NCBI GenBank assembly: GCA_026023565.1
Contig: JAPETS010000030.1
Span: 186,001 to 250,000 of the forward strand
DNA: 64,000 nt
DNA from: Cirrosporium novae-zelandiae
Lineage: Eukaryota
Reading direction: 5' to 3'
How positions within the stretch are numbered: the first letter of the stretch is position 1; the number at the start of each line of letters is the position of its first letter. The position numbers were made by a program, and so were the translations under genes. Below are positions 6,746 to 28,200 of this stretch, in pieces. Under the pieces are notes generated by a model that made no database searches, was not told where the DNA came from, and saw nothing but the letters and a program-made list of their open reading frames with translations.

Positions 6746-9700
6746 ATGTTGCGGGCTTCCGCATCCCAATGCTCAGGGAGCCCTATGGCTCAAAAGAGAT
6801 CTTTCTTCTGGGGGAGATACCCCGGGGGTCAAGGACCCCAAAGATTAGTAAGTGAACCTGATCCCATCTCAAGTTACTACCAGCCCATGGTAGAATACTC
6901 TTCTATTCTTCTGTTCTTCTGTTCTTTTTCTTGTCTCCCATCCTTCGTCTTTCATGAGAGGTGACCTCAAGCGAGAGCTCAAGATACTTAAAATTCACCG
7001 TGTAAACTTAAATCAAATGCTAACCTCTACTTAATTAGGGCTTTCTCCGAGAGGGGAAGAGGGAGTTGGCGATCCCGACGGCGAAGCTAAAGGAGGGGCA
7101 GTGGGTTTCAATGCCACTGCCCAGTCGAGTTCTTGCCGATGCGATGGAACTCGACAGCCGCGAGGAGGAGTTGGAATCCCTTCTCGCGGCTATTAGTCAG
7201 CCGGTCGAGGTAAGCGAAGATCTCCCCCATGAATCTCGTCACTTTGCCTGTAGCTTTTTTGACCGGGGTTCATTTCATTTGTTTTATGCCCAAAATTTTG
7301 AATGACCTCACTTTCGTTTTACCTCTGCTTGTCGATCTTTATGGATACCGATCCCTAACAAATGTCTAGATCGTCTCACCCTTCTTCCCCCCTCCCCGAC
7401 AATCCCTCCCAACCAACAAGCGAGAGCGGGCAGCGCGCCGAGCCTGGCGACGAAAAGGCAATACAATGTTGGAGAACATCCAGGAGAAAATCTACCGCGT
7501 GTTCACCTCGAGGAGAAAAAATCCTCGCTTGGGAGCGAGAGAAGACTTGACGACGGCCGTTGAACGTTTCCAAGCGTGGATCTTGCATTACCTTTGGAAC
7601 TTCACTCCCATCCCCGTCTACCAAAAAGTAGTCAGGTCTCGCTTCATTCTCAAGAAACTCTCCTTACCGCCAACATATGAAGCTCGAGGCAGTTCTCGCA
7701 AACGCCCTCACCCTCTCACCCCCATGTCTGATGCAGATAAGCTAGATTTCATCAAAGAGGAATCACTTGAGTCTGACGGATTGAGTTACTTGTCAATGAA
7801 TGAGCGCATCGCACGTCGCATGTTCCAACTTAATCCTGAGTATTACTCAAAGTGGAAGAAGTCACGCACTCCAAGCAGTAACCGCTATCGCATTTTGAAG
7901 GGTAGAGCAACCGTATCCATGCGACGTGACGGAACAACTGCTCCTAGGGCCTTGTTAGTAGGCGTTAGTCACCGAAGGCTACCTGCGATGAAAGCCAAAT
8001 CAAGCCCATTCAGCATGAGTGTTACTCCTCCCATCAATGTTGAAAATGACCTCAAGAGCCAAATGATGGACATCGAAGACTCAATTCCAACTCACTTTGC
8101 CGACACCTCACACCAACCATCTACCGTACTCACCAATTATGGATCTTCCTCTTCGGATCCTGTCACAATTACTGAAGGACATCCTATTGTTCAAGGTGTT
8201 AAAGATCTCAGTCTTGAAGACAGTTCTGCTGCAAATACGCTTGGTCTTGGCGTTTGGACTGCACCCGACAATGCCGCGATAAACACCGGCATGAACTCTC
8301 AAATGGGCACCGTTACTGATGTCGCTACGAACACCACCATGAACAACAATGTGGGCACCTATATGGGCACCACCAATACTCTCACGGGCACCGGTATTAC
8401 GGGCACCACCATGGAAGCGATGACATGCGCTCCAGATACTACTACAGACGCGGTTGCAGATACTACTACAGACGTGGTTGCAGATACTACTACAAACGCG
8501 AATGTTGACATGGAATATGCCATGGACACCAACGAGATGATTACCATGCATACTGCCAACGGCGAAAGTTCTCTCCAGCAAGCTCAAGTACCAGAAACCT
8601 CGGCTTCAGCTTCCGAATTCACTTTTATCGACAAGGGCAAAGCACCTGCCAAGCAGATTGCTGACTTTACAGAAGCCTCGGCTTCGGGTTCTGAATCTAC
8701 TTATGTCAACAAGGGCAAAGCACCTGCCAAGCAGACTGTTGATTCTACAAACGCCTCTAGTTCAATCTCTCAACTTTCCGCTAGAAAAATCAAACCTCTC
8801 CCTGCCAGAAGACGCAAAGCTCCCATTGGACAAGGCATTGATCATACAGAATTCTCGGCTCCAACTTCTAGTTTTGCTGGTTTCGACAAGGGCAAAAGTC
8901 CCATCAGGCCAGTTGATCCAAATATCGCTGGACCATCTTCTGAGTCTACGCATATTGCCAAGGGTGAAGATACTATCAATCAGAATGATACAAGTGTCGC
9001 TGAATCTCTGTCCGATGACGACGACAGATCTGACCTTTCTTCTATTGACTCGGACGTTGGAGACTTTGATGGAGACTTGGAACAGCTACTCTTGGCAGAG
9101 CTTCAAAAGCCGTCAAGCAGTTCGTCAAGTAATAGTTCTCCGTCATGGGTTACACCCAAGAATGCACCTACGATGAGCATGGTCCAGAACCAGCCCATTT
9201 TTAACTCGAGCACTCCTCCAAATGGCTTTCGACCAAGCACTCCAAATCAGCAACCTAGTTTCCCAAGTTCGCTGCAACATACTCCAACACTGCGACCTAG
9301 TTTCCCAAGTCCGATGCAAGGTACTCCAACACAGCAACCTAGTTTCCCAAGTCCAATACAGGATACTCCAACACAGCGACCTAGCTTCCCAAGTCCAATG
9401 CAAGGTACTCCAACACAGCGACTTAAACTTAGTTTCCCAAGACCACCGCAAGATACCTCAACCCAGCCACCTAGTTCCCCAAGTCGGCTACTAAATACAA
9501 GTCAAAGACCTAGCTTCCCAAGTCCGCGACCAGTTAGCACCTATTCTCAGGAGACCTTCGAGGACCGATTTGTCAAGTTAAAGGTTTCCAATGATGCTGA
9601 GGCCAAGAGAGCTGAAGATCAACGAAAGAAGGACGAAGAGGAGCGAGTGATACAAGAGAGGAGGACAGGAGTCGTTAAAATACCCAAGAAACATTTCATT

Positions 9701-10465
9701 CAACCGATCGACAATGATACTGAAAGAATGATCTTGGAACAGGTCAGCAAAGGCGCGTATGAAACCGTCAAAATAGGGAAGATGGAAATCCTTACAGGAG
9801 ATTTGATTCGTTGTTATCCATCAGAGGACAAATGCGGAAAAGTTCAATGGCTGAATGACACAGTCATAGATCTCTACTTCGACCTCATTGTCAAGTACGC
9901 AAACAACAGAGCTTCGGAAGCTGAGCGTGAGGCTGGCCATCTCTACGGATGTTTTACAACCCAATTCTACACGGCCCTTATGGATAAGGAGAATGGTCTC
10001 ACACGCGTAAAGAATTGGGCAAGGAGGAGAGGATTCAATGGAAAGAAGATTTTCAACATGAATCGCATATTCATCCCCATGAATCCAACCGGCTGTCATT
10101 GGACTCTAATGGTCATTACTCCCGGTGCACCGGCAGGCCAACGCCTCAACTATTACGATTCTCTAGGTGGTGACAAGAGGGGATCTTTGGCCCATTATCG
10201 GAATATCAAGAACTGGTTGAACCAAGAACTCGGCGCCGACTTTGATGAACACTACTGGGGTTTCCTACCGCGAGATTATTCTCCTCGACAAAACAACAGT
10301 GACGATTGTGGAGTTTTCGCTTGTACGTCGGCGAAATGTCTCATGCTTGGTATCGATCCTATGGCTATCAAGCCAACCGATATGAAGCTACAAAGGAAAC
10401 GAATAGTAGGCGAGATTATCAACGAAGGGTTCGAGGGTAAACTAGCACCCGAAATTGAGTGGTAG
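6746..10465 (+). CDS. ULP1: Ulp1/SENP-family SUMO protease (peptidase C48), about 1122 aa with two upstream exons (6746-6847, 7039-7209, 7370-10465)
   Basis: C-terminal C48 domain: WLNDTVIDLY, HWTLMVI (His), YYDSLG (Asp), QNNSDDCGVF (Gln/Cys). Upstream phase-0 introns GTAAGT..GCTAAC..TAG and GTAAGC..CCTAAC..TAG join stop-free in frame to the 999-aa ORF. Confidence 0.85.
8433..8740 (+). repeat. Coding tandem repeats in ULP1: 24-bp x about 2.6 (DTTTDAVA) and 78-bp x2 (ETSASASEFTFIDKGKAPAKQ)
   Basis: cagatactactacagacg units at 8433/8457/8481; cagaa(a/g)cctcggcttc...acaagggcaaagcacctgccaagcaga units starting 8592 and 8670. Confidence 0.85.
9240..9530 (+). repeat. 42-bp coding minisatellite in ULP1 (QRPSFPSPMQGTPT x about 6)
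   Basis: acctag(t/c)ttcccaagt recurs at 9253, 9295, 9337, 9379 with degenerate copies to about 9525. Confidence 0.9.
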
Positions 10466-11579
10466 AGCCTAATGCTCTGACTTACCCAACGCGTACTCGA
10501 TGAGTCACTGCACATATTGAAGGGTAGGATGATGATGAATGGTTGTATGATACTGATGAGTCTTTCTAATGTTTTTTTCGACTGGGTTTTATGATAGTTT
10601 AAGCGAGTACGATGGTCCTTTTAATTTCTCTTTTTTCTTTTCTTTCTTTCTCGATAGATGTTAGTTTCTTCCTTTTTCCCTTTGTCATTATCGTCCCATG
10701 TACGTACTTTGCCCGATGATGGCGGTCAGTCTTCCACTGACATCATCTCATTTTCTGTTCTGATTTCCTCCTGGTCGAGGAGAAAAGAGGTAGCCATTCA
10801 GAATTGTTTCTTTGGGGCCATGGGCTACCTCACACTGCTCCTTGAGCGGATGTGATGATCTCGTTGGTCTTAAGGACGTGGTTCTACTGCCTGCTCTCCG
10901 AATATTCTCCCGGATTAATCAGACAGCGATGAGATGATGGTTCCTCGGTGGTAGCTACTTTTGGAGGGCTTAGTCATTCTTCATGTATCGTTTCTTTCAC
11001 TTGTCTTGTACTAGATCGCGTGCTCTTTTGGCGGATGGAAAGGAGTATGCTGGGAAGATACCCACGCCAGGTCAATGATACCTGAGCTATCGTGTTATTG
11101 TTTCATGCGTATGCGTCTGCGTCTGCGTCTGCGTCTGTGTTCATCTAAATAAATAGATAGAAAATCAATGAAAAAAGATGAAAATTAAAAAATCAAGCAA
11201 CCTTTGCTTTCTTGGTGTAGTCCATCTAGCTTTATGCCTGTCTAGTTTCCACTTGGGAAGCTCAGTGGGGAGCTCAGTGGGGAGCTCCCTTCTCGGAAAA
11301 TGCCAAGGCGATACTCAACGTCCTCCGGACCTAACGGACCGAAACTCCACCGCAGAAAATTCCCCCGAGTTTCTTTAGTCTCGGGAGGATTCATAGCAGC
11401 TTACAGCTAATCAATGTCCCCTCCTAAACCATACATGGCTCCAATGATTCAGCATTTGAATTTTTTGTTACTGTTCAAAATGCCTTTAGGCTTCAGGGAG
11501 GGGCAGTATTTAATGCCTTCCATTGTCTTTTGGGAAGAGCTTTTTGATATCATTTGACCGAAATTTACTGGGTACAATC

Positions 11580-13567
11580 ATGACCAACACATCCCATCAT
11601 CTTGGCTCCCATAGCTCTACATCTTGCGTCATACAACTCGAGCCTCTCTCTAATGAGCAGGGCGGACAGTCAGGTATGAATTGCGAAGAAGGAAAGAGTG
11701 AAGATACAGAAGTCCAACAGAATACTGAATCCAACTCCTCATCCTCATCCTCATCCTCATCCTCAACCCCGTCGACAGCAGTGAGCCCGGTTCAGACATG
11801 GAACAACCCCAGAATCAACATTTGGAGGCTCTTGTCAACCTTCATTTCCTTTATAGTCATGGGTGCCAATGATGCCGCTTATGGGGTTGGTTTTTAATTC
11901 AATTTAACACGATTTCCAAAATTGACTAACATACATCTCCCATAGGCTTTAATTCCCTATGTTTGTACTTTCATCCTAGCTTTGTCTAAGAAGTGCTAAT
12001 TGGTTTCCTTTAAGCTTGAAAAATACTATAATGTCACCTACACAACGGTGTCCTTGATATTTCTCTCTCCCGTCATCGGTTATACCGCCTCGGCTATTCT
12101 TATAAATCCTATACACACACACCTAGGACAACGAGGAATTGCATTTCTTGGACCTGGCAGTCATTTGATTTCATTCATCATAACAGCCGTTCATCCACCT
12201 TTTCCTGTCCTGGTTGTGGTGTACATACTTGCTGGGTTTGGTAATGGAACTGAAGATGGAGCGTGGAATGCATGGATTGGCGGGTTGGCAAAAAGCAATG
12301 AGATATTGGGGCTTCTGCACGGATTCTATGGGCTCGGTGCTACCCTTAGCCCTCTTATTGCGACTTCAATGATTACAAAAGCCAATTTGAAGTGGTATAC
12401 TTTTTACTATCTTATGGTGAGCTATACTTTCGTACATTATTGTTTGACTCTGTATCCTATTATTTGGCCGAAAACAGTCTTTGGTACAACTTGTATGCCT
12501 CAAGGCTCGAATAAGGAAACCAAAGTAATAGTACTTGAAATAACTAAAGCCCCTCGAAACGTTTTCCCTCCAACTCGTTTCTTCTCCACAGACGACGTCA
12601 TTATCAAATTTCCATCTCATTCCCCCATCTCCATAAACCACAAGCTCATACATATCACCTCCAGATTGCCATCTCCACCATCGAACTAGTAACCAGCGTC
12701 TATTTCTTCCGCCACGCCAACGGCGCCGCATTCCTAGCCCAAAACCCCCGTCAACACCACTCCCACTCCTCCTCCAACACCCCCACCAAACCCCCCCGAC
12801 CCATAATCCTCCGCGCCCTCTCTCACCCCACAACAAGCATAATGTCCTTCTTCCTGCTAATCTATGTCGGCATCGAAGTCTCCCTAGGAGGCTGGCTCAC
12901 AACCTTCATGCTCCGCATCCGCCTCGGCACCCCCTTCTCCTCCGGTCTCGTCTCCACGGGCTTCTGGCTCGGAATAACCCTCGGACGCGTAACCCTCGGT
13001 TTCCTAACCCCGCGCCTCGGAGGCGTCCGCCTAGCCGTGCCCCTCTACCTCCTCTGCGCCCTAATCCTCCAAATCCTATTCTGGCGTATCCCCAACTTCG
13101 TCGCCAGCGCCGTGTTTGTGTCATTCGTGGGATATTGTTTGGGACCTATGTTTCCGGCGGCGGTTGTGGCGGCTACGGAAAGGTTGCCTAGGGATTTGCA
13201 TGTGGTGGGAGTGGGGTTTCTGGCTGCGTTGGGGAGTGCGGGGGCTTGTATATTGCCGTTTGCGGTGGGGGCGGCGGCGGAGGCGAAGGGGGTTGGGGTC
13301 TTGCAGCCGATTGTTGTGGGGTTGATGGGGGGGGCGTTGGGGTTGTGGTTTTGTCTTCCGGGGAGGAAGAAGGGGGAGGAGGAGGAGGGGGGGAGGAGGA
13401 ATGGTGGTGAGGGTGGTGGTGGGAGTGGTAGGGGTGGGAGTGGTGGTGGGGGTGATGGTGAGATGGAAGAAGCATCTAGATTGAGAAAAATGATTGCATT
13501 AGCTCGGGGGAAGAGACGTGTCAGAAGGGTTTTTGGAGGTGAGAATGAGAATGAGGAGAATTGCTGA
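11580..13567 (+). CDS. MFS transporter, BSC6/fucose-permease-like (exons 11580-11885, 11946-11960, 12015-12416, 12665-13567)
   Basis: Spliced WNNPRINIWR...GANDAAYG|ALIPY|LEKYY; many hydrophobic helices; GLLHGFYGLGATLSPLIAT; YVGIEVSLGGW; GFWLGITLGR; all four exons join in frame. Confidence 0.88.
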
Positions 13568-13853
13568 GATTGATTTGTTGGCATCGTTTGTCTCCTCTTT
13601 ATATAGATATATGTGTGTATACCTCTCTCTCTGGGATGATGCAAATGATATCTATGCATCTACTATGACAATGACCATGATAATGGAAATTCTCATACAC
13701 TGATACACAATTTTCGGACTTCCTTTTCCTCTTTTATATTTTTGTTATAATATAAGTGTTTAAGTGTTTTATTCTAGCTACTGTAGCCATACTCTCATCC
13801 TCCTCTAGGCCCACACAAGAACAACAACAACAGCCCCGAGCCCACCACCCCCA

Positions 13854-14330
13854 GAATCGACCGGCTGACTAATAGCCACCGGCGTTCCTCTTCCTCTCCC
13901 ATCCTTCCCCTCATCCTCCTCCTCTTCCCCCCCCACCCCCCAACCCCCGAATCGACCGGCTGACTAATAGCCAACCGGCCACCGGAATTCCTCCCCTCCT
14001 TCTCCCCTCTTCCCAAATATATATCCAAATTGTAATTTCGGTTATATATACCACACACACATCCCACGAGCAAAACCATACCCCCACACCCCACCACCCC
14101 CGGATCGACCGGCTGACTAATAGCCAACCGGGCTCCCCTCCTCCATCCCAACTCTCTCCTCCCCTTCTCCCCCCCACACCAACAACCCCCGAATCGACCG
14201 GCTGACTAATAGCCAACCGGAACTTCTCCCCTCCATCCCCTTCTTCCCCCCTCCCAAATCCCCAAATATATATATCCAAATTGTAATTTTGTTTGTATAT
14301 ACCACGCACACACGCACACACAGTATAATG
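13854..14330. repeat. Array of four copies of a 25-30-bp motif (gaatcgaccggctgactaatagcc(a)accgg) separated by C-rich spacers, nested in an approximately 245-bp two-unit duplication
   Basis: Invariant core tcgaccggctgactaatagcc at 13857, 13952, 14105, 14194; a second element cccaaatatatatccaaattgtaattt..tatataccac at about 14012 and 14261. Confidence 0.95.
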
Positions 14331-15299
14331 TAGTCACACATTTCCATAAAGAAAAATCACCCGCGTACAAAAAAGAATCCAGAAACGAATGGAAGGAGCG
14401 AGAGAATTTTCTTTTTGGGTTTTGTGTATTTTGTTGTGTATTTTAATGTCATGCAACCAGCACCAACCACCGACCGCTCACCGGTTACATTATTCTGTTC
14501 ATCAACTGCTGCATAGCTAGCTAACCAATTGACTAAACAATCCACGACGTAGAGTTTTTGGAAAATATAAATAACTTTCGGAGGGTTTTGAATGGGGAAA
14601 GGGTAAAGGTAAAGTTGAGAGTGATGGATTAACTTGGCTCAATCAACCCAAAACCTGGTGAGGAAAGGAGGGGAGAGAAGGGAAGGGATAACGTTGCTAC
14701 TCTCAGTATGCTGTTTGTAGGTCTGGTGTTGAATTTGAAATTGATGAGTGAGGATTCGAGACCTGAAATTGAAGATTCAAAATCTGAAATTCGAAATCCG
14801 AAATTTGAAATCAAAATTGGAGATTGGTAGGCAGCCAGTCAGCCAGGCAGGTAGATAGGGATTATTGATTTCGTCTTGAAGTACTATAGTGGGTTGTTAG
14901 TTCATTTGGATTGTGTATGGCGATATGATGCATACACAATGCATAAATATATATAGATATATACCTGTGGATTTAGAATCCGTGGTCCCTGGTAAATAGG
15001 AAGGCAGGAGTAGGGATAGAGGTAGTAGGTAAGGAAATCATCGGGGAGACTCGTAGTCAACAGAGTTGTGGTAACAACCATAACCACAGACAACCAACCA
15101 CAACCACACTAACCAAACTCTAGGAGTAATGATTTTTAGAAAGATAATTCTTTCTTCCAGTATCGCTGTTTTCAGATTTTGCATTCGACTTGACTGGCCC
15201 AGGACATCTTGAGGTATAGTAAAAAAAGAGGAAAGTGCATAGATAAAGAAAAGCCCGTAGATATCTTGGCTAGTGTTAGAAGGTAAGCTAGCGCTCTTA

Positions 15300-16040
15300 C
15301 CTACCTAGACTCAGAGGGTCGCGGGATGTTCGCTACTTGAGCGGATACCCAGCGTTATGATATATATAACTTGGTTGCACCGTTGCTGGTTTGTCTAGGT
15401 ATATTTAGGGCCTCTGTCGGATTGTCTAGAAGAGTGGTTCAGAAAGGTAGTCCGGGCTGGTTTGTCAAAAGGACGACGATAACGCGGTAGATAACCAGCA
15501 TTCTGGCCTTTGGGTCTAGAAATATATTGTGCGAGGTCATACCAGTTTATCTGTTTGGCGAAGAGCGTCCTCTAAAACTGCTCCGCTGTTGTGCTCACAA
15601 CGGGCTTCGTCGATCGACTACCTAAAGACGAGGTCGATGTTTCTCCAAGCACGGACGACATTCGAAAATTTGCTTGTATCGCCAATTTGCTTCGGAACTG
15701 CAAAGACCTAGGCCACATACTTTAGTGGATACCCAGTGTTGGGATATATAATCTAGTTACACCATAACAGCTAGCTTGTATTGTTCTTTGGTGATATGAT
15801 AATTGGTGAACCCTTGGTTGTTTTATATAATCGAAAATTGGTATCGTAGTCATATATAGTTATCAGCCGCTGTATGTTAATCGATATATATCGCACCCAC
15901 ATCCTTAACAGAGGAGGGAGGTGTTTGTAGTCCGAGTCTAGAATACTGGTTGACCATGCTATCAGAGACCAAACTTGGAATTGGATATGCCGATTATGGT
16001 CAAGTCCATGTTGCTGTGTGGTTGTTGAGCTCATCAGCAA
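15300..16040 (-). mobile_element. Decayed ORF relic, probably LTR-retrotransposon (Ty3/Gypsy-type) gag-like, with RIP-like stops
   Basis: Frame of ORF 16040-15771 continues through TAG stops as LLWCN*IIYPNTGYPLKYVA*VFAVPKQIGDTSKFSNVVRAWRNIDLVFR*SIDEA...; stops are compatible with CAG>TAG. The AWxxxDxxFRxxIxE pattern resembles fungal gag-like proteins from memory (unverified). Confidence 0.4.
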
Positions 16041-16654
16041 GGACTATAAACTACCCACCATACTATAATTTGAGCGAATAGAGTAAGTAGATCGATCCTA
16101 ACGCCATCTGATGTAGATCTGTGGCAGCGATAGAGGGGTTTCAATCTCAAAATTCTTCTGAGCGTTTTTCCCTAGCCCTTCCTGCTGGCTGGTACTTTGT
16201 GGTCAAATCAAGCCATAAATAAATGACTCCGAAGAGTTTTTGTTTGGTTGGCTCGTAGCTTAGCTCAGTTCCTGATTCCATCTGCTGATCACCGTCATTG
16301 CCACCAACTTGATTGTTGGGAACTCGTTCGTTCCGTTTATTTTGAGTTGGGAGGAAACATGTAAATGAGACAGAGAATGGAAGTGGGATTCTCATATTCA
16401 TAGATATGACTGCGATGTCTCTGTTGCAAAATACCAGTCATAGTTTAAGGTTGTAATAGTAGCAGAAGCAATTTGCTTTTCCTAAAGGGTTCAACAACAA
16501 GACAAGACATAGGTCATGCAAGAGATCTTCTACTATTGAGGGGGCTTTCCACCAGAGGAGGGTTATATATTCTTTAATCAGGAATGGTGAGTATATAAAA
16601 AGAATCAACTGCCCTAAGGTGGGCGATCTTCTCCTAAAGTTTCACCACCTCCAG

Positions 16655-16702
16655 TTCTTTATCGTAAATTCTTTATCGTAAATTCTTTATCGTAAATTCT
16701 TT
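16655..16702. repeat. 14-bp tandem repeat (ttctttatcgtaaa x3.4)
   Basis: Perfect units at 16655, 16669, 16683. Confidence 0.9.
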
Positions 16703-19023
16703 TTCTTGTTTCGCCCAATTATTTGGGTGTAAGTATTAGAGTGAGGTAAAAGATGGTCGGAGAATAGCATACGAGAACTAGGAGGAATTTTTGGAGAGGA
16801 AGAAAAAAGGAGGGGCGACGATATCAGGTAGATAGTACCACCTCTAAACTTTGAGGCCTAACCTCGGGAGCCATAGATTGCTTATCGCGAGAGGAACTAG
16901 AAGAAGAAAGCTGGATCCGGTCGAGATACTTCTAGCGAAAGAATTGGCACATGTATGTATGACTCGCTATCATTCAGAAGCTTGCTCCTGTAGACAGTGC
17001 AGAGATGTAGGATATTCTGAAGGCCATTCTTTGTGGTTGAGTAATTGTCTAGATGATGGAATTAGTTTTTTTTAGATCATCAGAGGGGTGAAAGGGTCTT
17101 ACAGGAAGTGGAGTAAGCTTCGTCACCTAGAGAAATGCATCCCGGTGTGATTGAAATATCCTGGTATCCTTTGAAGTCCATTGTCTTCAGCTTATCCATT
17201 CCACTCCTCGGTCGTCTCGTTCCTCAATAACAAACACTGACAGCTGTTTCTAGATATTGGTAATTTGCTGGGCGATATTAATCATCGTGGGATATTGTTG
17301 TGTCATTGTACAGGAACAGTGTGACTAAGGTTTGGGAGAACAGTTGATATTGAAGAGTGCCTGATGTTTAAAAAGAGGTCCAAGTTTGAACACCAAGAAG
17401 GGCCTTATTAGGCTCTGACCTCAACAGTGTCAGAGCCTAGTGAATGAGCGACAAGAAGATGAAGTAGGCCTGAAGGTAGTGCTTCGGCTCTAGAAGATCG
17501 GCCACCGTTGGAGGAAATTAGCAGGTAGAGGGAAATGACATCAAAAGCAGACATGTCGTATGTTTCCTTTGGGGCCATGTATATTTAGAGTAGTTGTGCT
17601 TAATTGTAACAATAATAAAAGTAAGCTGCTTGGTGGAAGGATTCAGTGAAAGATAGAATTGCCTGAGCAGTGTTTGTGTTTGTGTGAGACCATGGAACCC
17701 GTCACTTATCTATAGTCATGTTGGACTATGTATGATGAAGTATGATCCTAAACTTGAGGCAGAAAGCAGGTTACTGCTTTGCTTCGCTTCAGAACTGTTG
17801 CTTATCTTTGGGATGTTTGGATATCCATCTGTTTCTCAAATAGAACGAGAGGTTTGAAACGGATAACTTTTTGATGATTGATAGGCGCAGTGAGAATCAC
17901 TATATCATATTTCAAAAGAAATTGTGTCTGCTCCATTCCCACAAGACGAGTAAACTGGAAAAAGTCCAACGTTAGCTAAGGAATCTTTCATTTCAGAATA
18001 GTCAGATATTTTAGAACCATATGAAGTATACTCACCAGTAGCTCCACTATATTAATCAACGTATAGGTACAATTACCACAAGCACACATTTCCCTTGCTG
18101 TTGAAAGACATAGCAACAAGGGAAAGGGTGGGCTGGGGAGAAAAATTGATAGAGGAACGCCTCTTGGCTGCTCTTTGTAAGAGTCTGGAGCTTTACTAGC
18201 TGGAGTTGTTGAAACTGTTGGGGCTGTTGAGGTTGTTGGAGTTGCTGTTGATGCTGGAATAGTTGACTGTAATAACATGCTTGCAAGTTGTTGCATAAGG
18301 ATGAGGTTAGGGTAGTGGAGAATAAAGAGAGGGGAAAACAAGTTCAGTCCCATCAAAGGAATGAGATGCAGGGAGGATTTCCGGAAAGTGAGGTAGCAGT
18401 TTGCTCGGCGTTAGGCAACAAGAAAAAAGGACCGCAGGCCATGGTTACCAAGGCGTGGACTAAGGAATGTGGTGCTGATATATGAAAGATAGTTATAATT
18501 AACCGGAGGGGAGATAGGTATATACAAAGGAATTTTTTAGTCGGTAGGCAACGACAAGAAAGGAAGTTGAATTGGATGCTTCCGGAATCAAAACGTTGGG
18601 GGGAAGGGACCCGTATTTATCTTCGTCGGGGGCATTATAATGGGCAAACGGAATTCACTGAACGGGCACAGATGCATCATATAGGGTTCATACATGCATG
18701 CGGGCATGCATGTGAGTCCGTTTCTTCTTCACTCTCCAGATGATAATAGCATGACTAAAGTAAATATTTCCTTGATAAGTGAGTCCCTATAGATTAGATC
18801 ATACAGCACAACGCATACAATGCAAGAATCAGTATCGGTGAATAGAAAGAACATAACTGACAAACAGCAAGCACTGCATGCATGGCCATTATTCCCCAAA
18901 AATATCTATCTAACCAGTGTCCAGTGAATTATACCTATGCCAGAGCAATCTCCCTGGCCGCCTGAGCCTGTCAGGCCCCCTTTGTCCTTTGTCGCCACAT
19001 CCTGTTCCCCTCAGTCTTTGGAC

Positions 19024-20780: not shown

Positions 20781-21731
20781 TTACATTCCAGCCCACTCAA
20801 CACAAAGTGTTCTGACTCTTTCACTGTTCTCATCCAACCCACCAAACAGATACCCTTTCTTCACTCCTGTACCCAATCTTCCTCCTCCAACTATATCCAG
20901 CAAGTCTATTTCTTCTTCCCATTTTACGCCAGTGGCTAAGAAATGACTATGATAAGCCACTGGGTCACCTGGGTATACCATATATTGGCACCCAAATCGA
21001 ATTCCGGGACTCATAACGTAGGAAAGCGAATGGAGATGTTTGAAGAGAGGATATGAAGAATGGGCAATTGGAATTTCGGCTGATAAAGGTGATGGAGGGG
21101 GAAGGGAAGCAGAAGAAGTCGTAAAGTGAGTTATACCATAAGGTTGCAACTCGGACGGTTTGCTTTCTGATTGAGAATTTTCATTTGAAGCTGTGACTAG
21201 TGGGTTTGGAGACGATTCAAACAGCGACTCCGTTTGTTCTTTAGATTCTCCTTGCCTGCTGTCTAGGCTAGTAGAATCTTGTGATGTATTTTTTTCCAGT
21301 TTGCCTCCCTTTTTTTTATTCTTCAAGCCTTGCTGTCCTTTCAGAGTTTTCAATATCTCCTCCTGCCTAGTCTTTCTCTTCTTTTCTTCTTCTAGTGCAA
21401 TTTCCATTCCTTCCTGTTCCACTTCCTGCCTGAGGCCTCTCCTTTCACTCACGGTCATTGCTCTCAGCCCTTCATAATGTAGTTTGCTATCATCTACAAC
21501 ATATGCGACACCTTTTTCAGCAAGTAATCGCACTTCTTCGGGCATTAGCTCAAGTGGGAGACCAAGTAATCGATTTTGCGCCGGAAATTGTGACAAACCA
21601 CCGATCTGAACGCCAAGAATCCTATGCTGGGTCCGCAAATAATGGGCATCATCAGGAGAGAAAATAAAGTACCGATTTTGGATGCGGGATACAGGGAGAG
21701 GGAGAACAGGTGACGGGGTTGGGAGCTCCAT
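20781..21731 (-). CDS. SEN34: tRNA-splicing endonuclease subunit Sen34
   Basis: N-terminal LRTQHRILGVQIGGLSQFPAQN..GLPLELMPEE; catalytic region PGIRFGCQYMVYPGDPVAYHSHF and GGGRLGTGVKK (Tyr/His/Lys); ends EWAGM. Confidence 0.93.
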   Translation of the reverse strand: MELPTPSPVLPLPVSRIQNRYFIFSPDDAHYLRTQHRILGVQIGGLSQFPAQNRLLGLPLELMPEEVRLLAEKGVAYVVDDSKLHYEGLRAMTVSERRGLRQEVEQEGMEIALEEEKKRKTRQEEILKTLKGQQGLKNKKKGGKLEKNTSQDSTSLDSRQGESKEQTESLFESSPNPLVTASNENSQSESKPSELQPYGITHFTTSSASLPPPSPLSAEIPIAHSSYPLFKHLHSLSYVMSPGIRFGCQYMVYPGDPVAYHSHFLATGVKWEEEIDLLDIVGGGRLGTGVKKGYLFGGLDENSERVRTLCVEWAGM

Positions 21732-22376
21732 TGGAGAAAATGGAAAACTGGTTAACCTAAACTGAATCTTCAGCTGTTAGTCGTGGACCAAAATATCAAC
21801 GCTTTGCTAAGTGGAGAAGCATGAAATATAAATTTGGATCATATAACACAATATTGGTATCGTCAAGGGTCCTCGATAGAGGATATCAGGGGATTGACAG
21901 ATTATGAATGGAGTTTAATCATATGGAGAGAAGAAATCTTGCGGCAAAGGGGAGTGACTCTTACTTATTTTCTGGTCAGGCTTTGCAGTTCCAAGCTACC
22001 TAGTGCGTTAGTTGTTGCATAAGAATGACAGTGGCCATAGCAGTCTTATATTTATAAAGTCTCAAAGGCGAGACAACACAACTGAGAGTTCCAAATCATC
22101 ATTTTGTCAATACCGAAAAGTTGGAATTGGTGGAGCTGCAATGTTCTTAATTTGAATTAAAATTTTGTTCCAAAATGTTTGCATCAATTGCACTCACTTC
22201 ACCAATTACAGCCCTAGTTTACATAATTACCGAGGTAACACACTGCAAAAATATAACCGCCACACCGAAACCGGCCAAGGCACAACACCATGACACGATG
22301 ATGCGACCAATCCAACATCCCACACCAAATACCCACAACTCGACCAAAAAATATCAAAAATTCACCGGAGCAAAAG

Positions 22377-22410: not shown

Positions 22411-22513
22411 TGGTCAGTACGGGGGTCGAACCCGCGACATCCGCGTTACCTGACTGCCGCTCGAGGCGGATGTCATATTAGCACGGCGCTCTAACCAACT
22501 GAGCTAACCGACC
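22411..22513 (-). tRNA. tRNA-Ile(AAT) with a 29-nt intron (22447-22475)
   Basis: Minus strand GGTCGGTTAGCTCAGTTGGTTAGAGCGCCGTGCT-AAT-A[intron]ACGCGGATGTCGCGGGTTCGACCCCCGTACTGACCA: acceptor stem, A box, B box GGTTCGACCC, intron at canonical 37/38; mature length 74 nt. Confidence 0.95.
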
Positions 22514-23930: not shown

Positions 23931-24778
23931 TCACAAATACGGCATGTTCCTCCATTTGAATTTCTTGTTGGCGCGATCTGGTGGCCTATTTTTGAACTGT
24001 TCTCCGTGTAACTCAAATATGAAACTCTTCAATTTCTTATGATGTATCATATGAGGGTCGCAATGCTCATTTAGAGTTGAGTCAGAAGATGATTCAGAAT
24101 TAGGCAAAGGAACCTCGAACCGGAAAACTGTATGCTCTTTTGGTATGGCTGTACCATACGTTAGTAAAATTCCATAAAAAGTAAATAATAAGACATACTC
24201 CACACTCTTCCCTTGCCAGTTGTTATTTCGTTTCCTACGATAACAAAAGCAAACTTCCCGTCTCTCACTACCGTCCCTTTTATTCCAACCCTCCCGACGC
24301 AACGACTCCTTACCACTGTAAGTTCAGCTCCATGAAAATCCGCACTTGCTAGTTTACTTCCATGTGCTTGTGCTGACACGAAAGTCTCTAGACTAGCCAG
24401 GTCCAACTCTAATATTTCTTGCATATATCCTACCCATAGTCCCCTAAGTTTCCGCAAAACCTCTTCCCTTTGAATAATATCTTCCTTGTCTGTACTTGTC
24501 CAAAGTTTCTCCCTACTTAGATCATGGAGTCCAAGTGTTCGTTTTTCGTGCGCAGACAGTGGTGCTGGGGTACGGTGAGCCTTGTAGTGGGCCTTTTTAA
24601 GAGCTCGCAGACGGCGACGCTTAGCTCGATTGTCGGGAGGTGGAGGAGATGAGGCTCCCAATAACAGTTTGCGGTGTTGAATTCGATCAGTGAAGATTTC
24701 AGTTGCTCTGGAAAGTGGATGCGCGCGAGCAAGAAGTTGGTGCGCTGGATGCGCTGCCTGCTGTGGTGTAGATGTCAT
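23931..24778 (-). CDS. POP4: RNase P/MRP protein subunit Pop4/Rpp29 (intron 24149-24198)
   Basis: LRGLWVGYMQEIL, KLASADFHGAELTVVRSRCVGRVGIKGTVVRD, spliced W|TIPKEHTVFRFE, ELHGEQFKNRPPDRANKKFK. Confidence 0.92.
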
Positions 24779-25270
24779 GTTGTGTCTAGCATCCTCTATC
24801 TATATAGAGCAACTGTTGGTTTTAACAAGCCTACTACTTTCGAATGTAAATGGTAAGGAGAACTTGCATGAAATAGGTTCATCTATGCAACTTTGGAAAA
24901 TGCTCAAGTGAAAGCAAACCTAAGAATTGGCGGGGCAGGTCTTGGGCGGCACGACGCGAACGTAATGGCATGAACCTTGTTTTAGCGACTTGATAGGTAA
25001 TATCCTAATTGAGTCTACACCGGATCTTGGTCTTAGATCGAGAAGGTCAATTAATTTGATTACGGTTTTGAGATTCCTGGTTCTGGTCTACCTCGGTATA
25101 TAAACATGTTTACGAATAATTATAATAGTCCAAGACATTTTGAACATTGTGAGAGTATATCAAACGAATAATTTTTTACTTAGTCCATCCATCATAGGAT
25201 CTTTCCGCATAATTTATTTAACATAAAAAGGAAAAATACCTTTGCGCCTTATCCACGTAATTTAAAGACC

Positions 25271-28200
25271 CTAGACAAGCTTTTTCTTAACTTCTAGGAT
25301 AATCACATCTCCATCCTGACCATTCTGCTCTTCATCATTATTGCCCTCGTTAGCATCGTCATCAAGTAGAATCGGAGACCTGGCCGAAGAGCCTGAATTT
25401 ATGAGTCTTCCACTTGTTTCAAATTGGGTTTGCATAGCCTCACACATTTTCAGATGGTCAGGGTTTTTCTCATGATGGTCCTTACAACGAGAGCATTTGA
25501 TAAGGTACCAATGTTGAGATGCTTCATAGCCCAAAGCCTGAAGTTCTGGAACGTTATCATCAATGAGCATAGTGTTTTCCCAATCGACGCAATCTTCACA
25601 GAATCCAGCCTCACACCAGCGACAGCGGAAAATCATACCACCAGCGGCCGCAGCACCCTTTCTACATTGCGCACATAAATGTTGAGAACAGCTAAATATT
25701 GGCAGGTTAACCCGAACTTGTAGCTTCGGGCTGAGACAATCATAGTGAAAGGTACGGGGGCACAAATCGCAGAGTATGAGCTCCCCTCCGTCATAGCAAC
25801 ATTGACAATACTATTAAACGGGTTAGCTGTTTCATTATTAAGTCATGTAATGGCTACTAACACTTTGATGTTCAAACTTTTCCTTGTTAGATTTGGCCTC
25901 GGTAATCTGTGGGCTCTTTCTTCCGAATGTTGGGACAGCCTCTCCGTCTCTACAAGCCAAAGAATCTGTCGAAACCGAAAACCCGTCGATAACAACGGTA
26001 CGGGATCTTCGAATTCTAGGTGTGGTGGTGTCGGTTTCCGTTGAAGCTGGCTCTGAATCTCTGAGTGAATAATGTTTCCCTTCAAATACTCTTGACTTAA
26101 CGTGTTCAATTGTTGAGAGCCATTGCCGTTCATCCTCTTCAGAGTTTTCGGGGAGAGCTTTACTTGATGATTGACTCTTGCATCTTTCTAGAACTGTTTG
26201 CCAGTCCCAGCTTAAGAGTTCCTCAATATTTATCTCCGATTCCAGAGCTCGGGTACCTCCTCTCACAAAAGACATTAGTTCGGTGACTGACAATCTCTGT
26301 GCCTCCTTATTAGAGCCTTCCTCATTGCGAATACTCTCGGTTGTTTTATCCTCAGCAGAATAAACATCATGCATTGATTCAGTAATTTTTGCCGAAAGAT
26401 ATAGCTTCTTTTGGATTCGACCCATCATCTGTTCTTCCACCGTTCCTTGCGTGCAGAATTTATATATCGTAATAGGCTTGTTCTGCCCAATCCTATGTGC
26501 CCGGGATTCTGCCTGTAATACGATCTGTGGATTCCAGTCTTGATCCAAAAGAACGACGGCAGATGCTGAAACCAGGTTGATTCCAAGACCACCAGCTCTC
26601 AAGGTCATGAGCATTACTCGATGTTCGGATTCTTCGTCACTGAAAAGCCTGATGGTGAGGTTACGTCGAGCACGACATGTGTTCCCGTCTAGACGGAGAT
26701 ATTTGAACTCTCCAGAACCAGCACCTCGAAGCATGAGGAGTTCTTCGCAACTATCCAGCATTTCCGTAGAGGTAGAGAATATCAAGACCTTTTTCTTTTG
26801 TTCAACCACAAGTTTACTTAGCAACTTTTCAAGAACGATAAACTTCGACGACGCATATATCAAATGTTCTCCTGTTGTATAAGACTCTGGGACAGCTCCT
26901 GGGACTATATAAGGGTGGTTGCAGACCTTTTGAAGTTGGACCAAAAGATTCTGTAATTTGAGCCACATACTCTTCTCTTTATCCTTTGCCGAAGCTGTCT
27001 GTGAACTGAGGCCGAGGGACTGCGGCCCTTCGGGTTGTGATTTTGGGTCCTGAAAAATTTCCTCGAGGAGAGCTTGATCCGTTCGAGTTAACAAGGTCTT
27101 ATACCAAGCCCGTTGCAAGGGTGTCAAGGGAATGAACAGCTGGACTTCTGATTTTGGTGGAATGTCTAGGTTGACATTCTGTGAATCTTTCATCCTTCGA
27201 ATCATTATCAATTCTAGCAAGTCTCTTGCCTTATCCATAAACCCTGTATCAACCTGACCCTTTGATAAGTTGAACGCTGATTGGAATAGTTTTTCTGTAT
27301 TGTTTATAAACACGTCAGGATACAACCAATGAAGTAACCCCCAAAGTTCTTTGAGATCATTTTGTAACGGGGTTCTAGATGGATTGTCAGCCAGTATTCG
27401 TCATGAGATGAAAACGGAAGAGGCCTACCCTGTTATTATTAATCGATATTCAGATGTTAACCCTTGAAGGGCCCTTGCACTTTGCGTATTCTGCCTCTTT
27501 ATTCGATGTCCTTCGTCAAGGACGACATATCTCCAGACGAAAGCTCTGCTAAACCACGCCTTCTCGAAGTTGAATGTTTCGTAGGTTGTAACAATCAGGT
27601 CGATTGGTCTCCCATCACCTTGAGCATCATCGTTGTCGAGATCTATTACTGGCGGCAGGGTCGCAAGTTGCTTTAATGCAGCCCTCTCTGGTGGTGATCC
27701 ATGAAATCGCAATACTTTAAGCTTTGGCGTCCACTTTTTTGCCTCTTTGATCCATGGTTCAAGTACGCTCAGGGGGCAAATGACAAGAAATGGTCTATTC
27801 TCAAGGGTTGACGCAGTTCCCTGTTGCTCTTTCAAGTATTCAAACAAGGACAAAGTCTGTAGCGTCTTACCAAGGCCCATTTCGTCTCCAAGGATACCGG
27901 AAAGGCCATTTTTATGCAAAAAGACTAGAAATGAGAGTCCTGATAACTGATATGGTTTGAGTTGGGCTGTCACACCTTTGGGCTGACTAACAGTTTCGTA
28001 TTTCGCAATGACCGGTTTTCCAAATGGATACTGTTCCCGATAATCTTCAATCAAAGCTTGAATATGATTTCTACTTGGAAGCAATGGAAGGAAAACTTCG
28101 CTGTGTGCAATCAAGAAGTTCGCTCGTTTGACTGCTGTCTTTTCTGCGATAGCTTTGCGGACTTCAATTCGAACGGTTGAAGTCTTAGTTCCTGCCTGGA

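Follow-up and report, generated by a model that had tools for sequence, protein, structure and literature searches.

A palindromic unit in a duplicated intergenic array and its partial inverted copy at the end of ULP1 exon 2 in a fungal genome labelled Cirrosporium novae-zelandiae

What links the end of a coding exon to four copies of its reverse complement in an intergenic array 6.6 kb away? The question is raised by a stretch of 64,000 nt (contig JAPETS010000030.1, positions 186,001 to 250,000; hereafter the window) from a fungal metagenome-assembled genome (MAG) labelled Cirrosporium novae-zelandiae, an ascomycete of the class Xylobotryomycetes. The 21-mer GGCTATTAGTCAGCCGGTCGA has a single plus-strand copy in the window, at 7188-7208, in exon 2 of the ULP1 gene. 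Its exact reverse complement is found at 13857-13877, 13952-13972, 14105-14125 and 14194-14214, where the word itself lies on the minus strand, in an array downstream of an MFS gene. The initial annotation of this DNA had reported these sites and offered two explanations: a plus-strand RNA carrying four antisense guides that would mask the exon 2 donor or silence the long ULP1 isoform, or a DNA-binding site or dispersed element present at both loci. All five sites proved exact.

The match is genuine and chance is excluded. Five sites were found in the window with up to three mismatches allowed, every one of them with 0 mismatches, and 100 dinucleotide-preserving shuffles gave a mean of 0.00 matches (largest 0), in keeping with the expectation that a chance match within 64 kb would be very unlikely. 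A search of the window with the central 15-mer returned the same five sites and one chance-level site with three mismatches, at 27981. Eight pairs of inverted repeats of at least 20 nt are present in the window, and only the four 21-mer pairs are 100% complementary.

The array is a tandem duplication (2 x 2) of a block of ~250 bp with two cores per block. The first half (13826-14061, plus strand) comprises a C tract, core 1, a CT spacer, a second C tract, core 2, a CT tract, an AT-rich TATA-like tail and a CA run. The second half (14074-14312, plus strand) is its tandem duplicate, with a tail that is 91% identical at a spacing of 251. The AT-rich tail of each block has the sequence ATATATATCCAAATTGTAATTT..TATATACC. 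The block that is invariant across the four copies is 23 nt long (A + 21-mer + A) and lies at 13856-13878, 13951-13973, 14104-14126 and 14193-14215, all on the plus strand. The cores are spaced by 95, 153 and 89 nt and are unphased. Around the core, copies 2-4 have 35-38 nt in common, CCCCCG(A/G)ATCGACCGGCTGACTAATAGCCAACCGG, and copies 2 and 4 carry an identical 38-mer. The conserved unit is therefore ~35 nt long (CCCCCGAATCGACCGGCTGACTAATAGCCAACCGG) and exceeds the 21-nt part in common with the exon, so the conservation is not defined by the complementarity to ULP1. The 21 nt given earlier as the conserved core are indeed invariant, but their extent was set too narrowly.

An alignment of the two halves has 223 matches, 35 mismatches and 51 gap columns, with 0 changes in the cores, as had been claimed in describing an invariant core between drifting spacers. 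The changes are distributed as 0/46 in the core, 4/45 in the AT-rich tail and 35/212 over the aligned non-core positions. Zero core changes at the rate of the tail have a probability of ~0.013 by our own calculation. The core appears to be constrained, since copies 1 and 2 have flanks that can hardly be aligned and yet identical cores. When the flanks of the 21-mer were tested for further similarity, copy 3 gave a weak signal (0/300 shuffles) and the other seven tests were unremarkable. A coding repeat on the minus strand, with LAISQPVD motifs, was also considered and rejected, because the cores do not keep to one frame and the codon score of the minus-strand open reading frames (ORFs) is -0.17.

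Word depths in sequencing run X1 are 147 for the contig that spans 13941-14214, between cores 2 and 4, 281 and 373 for the contigs flanking it, and 360 for the 38-mer common to copies 2 and 4. This pattern could reflect the presence of two-copy and four-copy alleles in the sample or a coverage bias in C-rich sequence; the depth of a contig is not its copy number.

The array starts beyond the MFS gene, which has MFS_1 in two ORFs and ends with a stop codon at 13565-13567. Core 1 begins 289 nt after the stop, close to the ~290 nt first given. Direct inspection of the sequence between the stop and the array reveals an AT-rich stretch with TATATA-type words (13568-13800, plus strand). This is probably the 3'-end region of the MFS mRNA, and the array, which follows the TATATA-rich sequence, probably lies outside that mRNA.

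The unit contains a dyad. The 23-mer CCGGCTGACTAATAGCCAACCGG is an imperfect palindrome with 9/11 symmetric pairs in copies 2-4 (13956-13978, 14109-14131 and 14198-14220); in copy 1 a 1-nt deletion displaces the right arm. At least nine symmetric pairs occur in just 16 other 23-mers of the window. The dyad is laid out as CCGG-C-TGACTA-A-TAGCCA-A-CCGG. Its centre, TGACTA-A-TAGCCA, includes TGACTAA, a heptamer that each of the four cores carries and that the exon copy has in inverted form. Both TGACTAA and TTAGTCA are listed as Yap1 sites in the available text of PMC6545440 and PMC7261193, and the array core resembles the Yap/AP-1 response elements in this respect. The Yap1-type heptamers (TGACTAA, TTAGTCA or TTACTAA) are not enriched over the window as a whole, with 14 found and 8.9 +/- 3.0 expected. 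Another one stands in CCAATTGACTAA at 14524-14536 (plus strand), ~200 nt past the array, where CCAAT immediately precedes TGACTAA; it is a further bZIP-type heptamer, placed by a CCAAT box.

Another known form for comparison is the 13-bp Yap8 element TGATTAATAATCA (PMC7261193 and PMC6545440). By our own count, the central 13-mer of the array, the pseudo-palindrome TGACTAATAGCCA, is identical to it at 10/13 bases, and the array core would likewise be a long site with very few targets. The Yap8 element is however built on a 7-bp core between TGA and TCA with A/T-rich flanks, whereas the array has TGA-CTAATAG-CCA within G+C-rich CCGG flanks. Inverted CGG/CCG triplets bracket the dyad, as CGG-N15-CCG in copies 2-4 and with N14 in copy 1, and the exon copy retains one triplet. 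Such motifs are common targets of Zn2Cys6 proteins according to the part of PMC3730340 that was available. The array shares with these CGG-Nx-CCG sites the inverted triplets around a dyad. It differs from them in that the interval between the triplets is wholly invariant, in the N14 of copy 1 and in the single triplet of the exon copy.

The other locus is the ULP1 gene. A large ORF at 7370-10465 encodes the Ulp1 protease domain and is identical to the deposited 'MAG: hypothetical protein M1834_005255 [Cirrosporium novae-zelandiae]' (P0001, 1122 aa). The joined exons 6746-6847, 7039-7209 and 7370-10465 reproduce that protein letter for letter. This exact three-exon model, of which the deposited version is seemingly an ab initio prediction, places the 21-mer at the end of exon 2 with the donor at 7210, where it had first been located. 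Exon 2 (7039-7209, plus strand) has 57 codons, canonical introns on both sides and coding-like codon usage. Intron 1 (191 nt, GTAAGT...GCTAAC...TAG) and intron 2 (7210-7369, plus strand, 160 nt, GTAAGC...CCTAAC...TAG) both carry canonical fungal signals. In the annotated frame, exon 2 scores 0.248 log2 units per codon. Exon 2 is very probably real, because this codon score lies at the mean of coding windows (0.22 +/- 0.10) and far from that of non-coding ones (-0.35 +/- 0.19).

The exon copy of the 21-mer (7188-7208, plus strand) runs from base 3 of codon 84 to base 2 of codon 91, in the peptide context ..LLAAISQPVE. It spans seven codons and leaves 1 nt of the exon between itself and the GTAAGC donor. 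It holds 21 of the 35 bp of the unit, inverted relative to the array, and consists of TCGA and 17/23 bases of the dyad, the right arm being missing. Retention of intron 2, in frame 0, leads to a stop; the in-frame ATG downstream of the intron is at 7466 (M124).

The 3' end of exon 2 is predicted to be strongly structured. Two adjacent perfect hairpins (7124-7155 and 7156-7191) are followed by the 21-mer and the donor. The segment 7118-7215 (plus strand) folds at -45.1 kcal/mol with a z of -3.75, below all 151 coding windows of 98 nt (minimum -3.02), and a second estimate of z gave -3.77. The 21-mer itself is predicted to be mostly unpaired in the exon 2 RNA, directly after the two strong hairpins. 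GTCGAG occurs at 7124 and at 7204, and either could pair with CTCGAC at 7150; alternative pairings beside the intron-2 donor are therefore possible.

For ULP1, the large exon, residues 1-130 and residues 100-330 were each used in word-indexed searches, and each time the protein itself was the only match. A full HMMER scan gave 3212 matches, the best 150 of which all lie at residue 572 or later. The N-terminal half is without detectable relative in these searches and, for this reason, appears to be weakly constrained. The coding sequence also contains internal tandem repeats at 8433-9525 (plus strand), namely three of 24 nt (8433-8504), three of 78 nt (8592-8924) and five to six of 42 nt (9239-9525); in the protein, they appear in its non-conserved middle as peptide repeats rich in Thr, Pro and Ser.

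The two loci share a second word. The CT-tract 18-mer CCCTTCTTCCCCCCTCCC occurs exactly twice in the window: at the start of ULP1 exon 3 (7379-7396, plus strand), 70 nt before the ATG at 7466, and at 14238-14255 (plus strand), 23 nt after core 4. The window has 201 pure C/T 18-mers, and this is the only non-periodic one common to distant places. It lies downstream of the core at both loci and in the same orientation, whereas the 21-mer is inverted. A simple retro-copy of the spliced exon 2-exon 3 junction was rejected on account of the opposite relative orientation of the two words at the two loci. The pattern fits an orientation-free upstream activating sequence (UAS) combined with an oriented core-promoter tract, and an internal promoter could give rise to a short ULP1 isoform that begins at the ATG at 7466. 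According to the available portion of PMC3730340, the upstream regions of Aspergillus genes typically have CT tracts close to the gene and on its own strand.

The reading favoured here, with a probability of roughly 0.4, is that the array is a tandemly duplicated intergenic cis-regulatory module, promoter-like and acting at the level of DNA, and that ULP1 holds a partial in-frame copy of its unit or an intragenic site. The ~35-bp unit, with a 23-bp palindrome in which an AP-1/Yap-type TGACTAA stands between inverted CGG/CCG triplets, would have the layout typical of dimeric transcription-factor sites. After each pair of units come a CT tract on the plus strand, a TATA-like AT box and a CA run, so that the block looks like a UAS joined to a core promoter. 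A head-to-tail block with conserved sites, a CT tract and a TATA-like box has the layout of a tandemly duplicated promoter module, and no coding potential is consistent across the array, which also favours this reading. The block would drive plus-strand transcription of the 4.6 kb beyond the MFS gene, a stretch with no ORF that can be annotated. The exon copy may have arisen as a short templated copy between neighbouring loci, tolerated by the poorly conserved ULP1 N-terminus. Alternatively, it may be an intragenic site that serves the second CT box and ATG (7379-7396 and 7466) and thereby a short ULP1 isoform. In both cases the antisense relation would be a by-product of an orientation-independent site.

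A DNA site at both loci, the second of the explanations first proposed, thus matches the anatomy better than antisense guides. The unit exceeds the ULP1 complementarity by 8 nt on the left side and 6 nt on the right; it has dyad symmetry, the TGACTAA heptamer and the CGG/CCG triplets; and it is placed amid CT tracts and TATA-like boxes. The version of that explanation in which the site is a dispersed element found no support in the window or, for copies of at least 30 nt, in 35.7 Mb of contigs from the run that contains this DNA.

Several observations weigh against the regulatory module. No gene, Pfam domain or Rfam family was found in the region 14340-19000, which leaves the putative promoter without a known product. 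Perfect identity over 21-23 nt at five places exceeds the usual footprint of a transcription factor, and the exon copy, lacking the right arm, is at best a half site. Its position within 1 nt of a splice donor has to be left as a coincidence, with an a priori chance of ~0.3-0.5% by our own post hoc estimate; this position relative to the donor is the single feature that only RNA-level explanations account for. The 64-kb window yielded neither a bZIP or Zn2Cys6 gene nor another copy of the motif. The significance of the dyad is modest, and the constraint statistics depend on the assumed neutral rate, as low-complexity spacers mutate fast by slippage.

Tandemly repeated upstream elements reportedly occur in fungi as the duplicated enhancer repeats of cyp51A azole-resistance alleles. 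The array would resemble these in its short units with a transcription-factor-type site, repeated head to tail in intergenic DNA near CT tracts and TATA-like boxes. On the other hand, it lies 3' of the nearest known gene and has no known regulated gene downstream, its spacers are old and diverged, and a partial copy is found in a coding exon 6.6 kb away.

The search for copies elsewhere covered the window, run X1 and a set of metagenome contigs. No partial copy of at least 11 nt of the 35-nt unit was found elsewhere in the window. Run X1, the only run found to contain this DNA, has 157,048 contigs (35.7 Mb) and may be the source from which the genome was assembled. In it, a 58-nt stretch around the unit matched four contigs, all of them pieces of the array; this result covers matches of at least 30 nt, as the comparison did not report the bare 21-nt exon copy and so is blind to 21-mers. 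Among the contigs matched, no new joint pointed to an inversion between the inverted words. The near-exact search of the window and the comparison with the run X1 contigs at 30 nt or more gave no further copies, and the notion of a generic dispersed repeat found no support. The JGI metagenome contigs contain 0 exact matches to the 21-mer. Relatives of the MFS gene are present in metagenome contigs at eight loci, with 45-71% identity. None of the eight has ULP1 upstream, and none carries the 15-mer or 9-mer core. Downstream of these relatives there is no comparable repeat, with 0 repeated 14-mers in 7/8 and an unrelated one in L007. As far as it could be searched, the relation appears to be specific to the two neighbouring loci, with a constrained core. 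A tRNA, a SINE A-box, a Helitron end and a recombinase site were dropped on reading the sequence, as their defining parts are missing.

How far, then, do other explanations account for the same facts? If the relation acted through RNA, a plus-strand transcript, from MFS read-through or of its own, would carry four segments of 21 nt able to pair with the 3' end of ULP1 exon 2, and would block the intron-2 donor or guide silencing of the long isoform, leaving the short M124 isoform. This is distinctly unlikely in our judgement, and slightly less credit still is due to a trans-acting device in which four 21-nt guides, by pairing beside the intron-2 donor, would turn the long spliced SUMO protease into the short M124 isoform. 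The complement is exactly 21 nt long, in four copies of one orientation, and its target occupies exon positions -22 to -2 from the donor, in the predicted unpaired segment after the hairpins; the stop reached on intron 2 retention and the in-frame ATG that follows would suit such a switch. The conserved unit, however, has 35 nt against the 21 nt of the pairing, which cannot be extended, the next bases being G-A and C-A on the two sides. U1 pairs at about -3 to +6 of a donor. The duplex ends 1 nt before the exon end, so that base -1 and the intron GU are not complementary and the U1 pairing region is abutted but not covered, a point against donor masking. To our knowledge, no trans-acting case of this kind is known in fungi, which also counts against it. 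The proposed antisense guides do have the size and the initial U of microRNA-like RNAs: the plus-strand word starts with U (a 1-in-4 chance) and its 21 nt fall within the microRNA-like range of about 19-25 nt. Their weakness lies in the precursor, as the plus-strand unit forms only a 5-bp hairpin with its loop inside the word (-9.5 kcal/mol, z -1.19) and the whole plus-strand array folds only marginally better than shuffles (z -1.89). The unphased core spacings and the AT-rich, 3'-end-like sequence ahead of the array likewise argue against such guides. The available text of PMC3547838 describes fungal microRNA-like RNAs as preferring a 5' U and as derived from a stem-loop that holds the small RNA in one arm. 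The array word is similar in its 21 nt, its 5' U and its intergenic location, but it has no stem-loop with the word in one arm and instead spans a small hairpin loop. For splicing, the precedent is ZEB2-AS1, a mammalian antisense RNA that masks a 5' splice site so that the intron is retained, according to the portion of PMC5838512 at hand. In both cases the complementarity lies beside a donor, and blocking that donor would lead to intron retention and a different protein. ZEB2-AS1 is nevertheless a cis-overlapping transcript, whereas the array complement lies 6.6 kb off, is 21 nt long and fourfold, stops short of the GU and is known from sequence alone.

The relation may also have no function at all. 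In this case, templated copying by template switching or break repair, in either direction over 6.6 kb, would have moved the inverted 21 nt and the direct 18 nt, tandem duplication would have followed, and the exon copy would have been kept as 21 nt in frame. Such a mutational patchwork is rather unlikely, although it would explain why two short exact words of mixed orientation are common to neighbouring loci and occur nowhere else in the window, why the word is exactly seven codons long, and why it sits in a half of ULP1 for which relatives fail to appear, with flanks that show only one weak further similarity (copy 3). It does not readily explain how four cores stayed identical through two rounds of duplication while their flanks diverged, or why the exon copy abuts the donor. 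The chance that the copied piece would fall entirely within the conserved unit is 2-12% by our own estimate. Separate insertions of a genome-wide family of short elements (a mobile mini-element, its footprint or a common site), with two loci by chance in one window, would account for the sharp boundaries (23 nt invariant in the array, 21 nt in common with the exon) and for the poorly alignable flanks of copies 1 and 2. Such a family is quite improbable, however: in the 35.7 Mb of run X1 no other contig matches at least 30 nt of the 58-nt unit, the window has no further copy with up to three mismatches and no partial copy of at least 11 nt, and neither the JGI contigs nor the eight MFS-relative loci yielded any. 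Finally, the unit might function on the minus strand, as a hairpin amid G-rich, G-quadruplex-prone tracts, or might serve on the plus strand as a splice signal that mimics the 3' end of a fungal intron. On the minus strand it folds at -24.5 kcal/mol (z -4.25, 0/200 shuffles as stable), the plus strand being weak, and both exceptions in the dyad become G-U pairs. Transitions in any palindrome give G-U pairs on one strand, though, so this is weak evidence, and the whole minus-strand array has a z of only -0.31. The branch-site consensus is CTRAC, and the plus strand reads a pyrimidine tract, the branch-like word CTGAC and TAG, as CTGAC-TAA-TAG. No donor, transcript or gene is known on either strand, and both versions are very improbable.

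The remainder of the window is mostly unremarkable. Downstream of the array, in 14340-19000 (~4.6 kb), no gene or Rfam family was found, and none of the ORFs matches Pfam or has a convincing codon usage. The stretch shows a weak, scattered codon signal, mostly on the minus strand, at 16150-16437, 17411-17584, 17805-17975, 18059-18343 and 18502-18654. It might be an orphan gene with several exons, a decayed element or a non-coding RNA. Just past the array, at 14749-14811 (plus strand), lies a tandem repeat of period 21 in three copies (TGAAGATTCGAAATCTGAAAT). At 15331-15380 and 15721-15765 (plus strand), similar words of the form GGATACCCAG-C/T-GTT..GATATATA stand ~386 nt apart with a short segment between them, and may be the ends of a small inserted element. 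The genes of the window are housekeeping in character and include Ras, PAP2, ULP1, MFS, pectate lyase, tRNA-intron endonuclease, Pop4 and SNF2/PHD, as well as Clr2, PKC, SNARE, RING, importin-9, HORMA, Het-C and others. At the gathering score, the only Rfam match in the window is a tRNA at 22411-22513, and around the ULP1 and array loci nothing credible appears at E <= 1, the single match being one of 18.6 bits to a bacterial family. The tRNA gene (minus strand, 103 nt) presumably contains an intron, and its neighbours are a tRNA-intron endonuclease subunit (20781-21776, minus strand) and Pop4 (RNase P/MRP p29; 23931-24799, minus strand). A scan for sigma-70 promoters and terminators has no meaning in fungal DNA.

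What has been found is a real sequence relation that still lacks an explanation, not a demonstrated system, and there is at present no evidence for a new kind of system. Its present value is a sharply defined 23-bp probe. If the antisense explanation were true, it would represent a new fungal mode of splicing control in trans, and multi-copy guide arrays acting on the splicing of a neighbouring gene would be a type of regulator for which fungi offer no described example. If the array is instead a control element, an almost unstudied class, the Xylobotryomycetes, would possess a DNA site that is unusual in its length and specificity and has very few targets. One copy of this site would then lie within coding sequence, just before an alternative start of the SUMO protease, an essential enzyme, and the exon would double as regulatory DNA.

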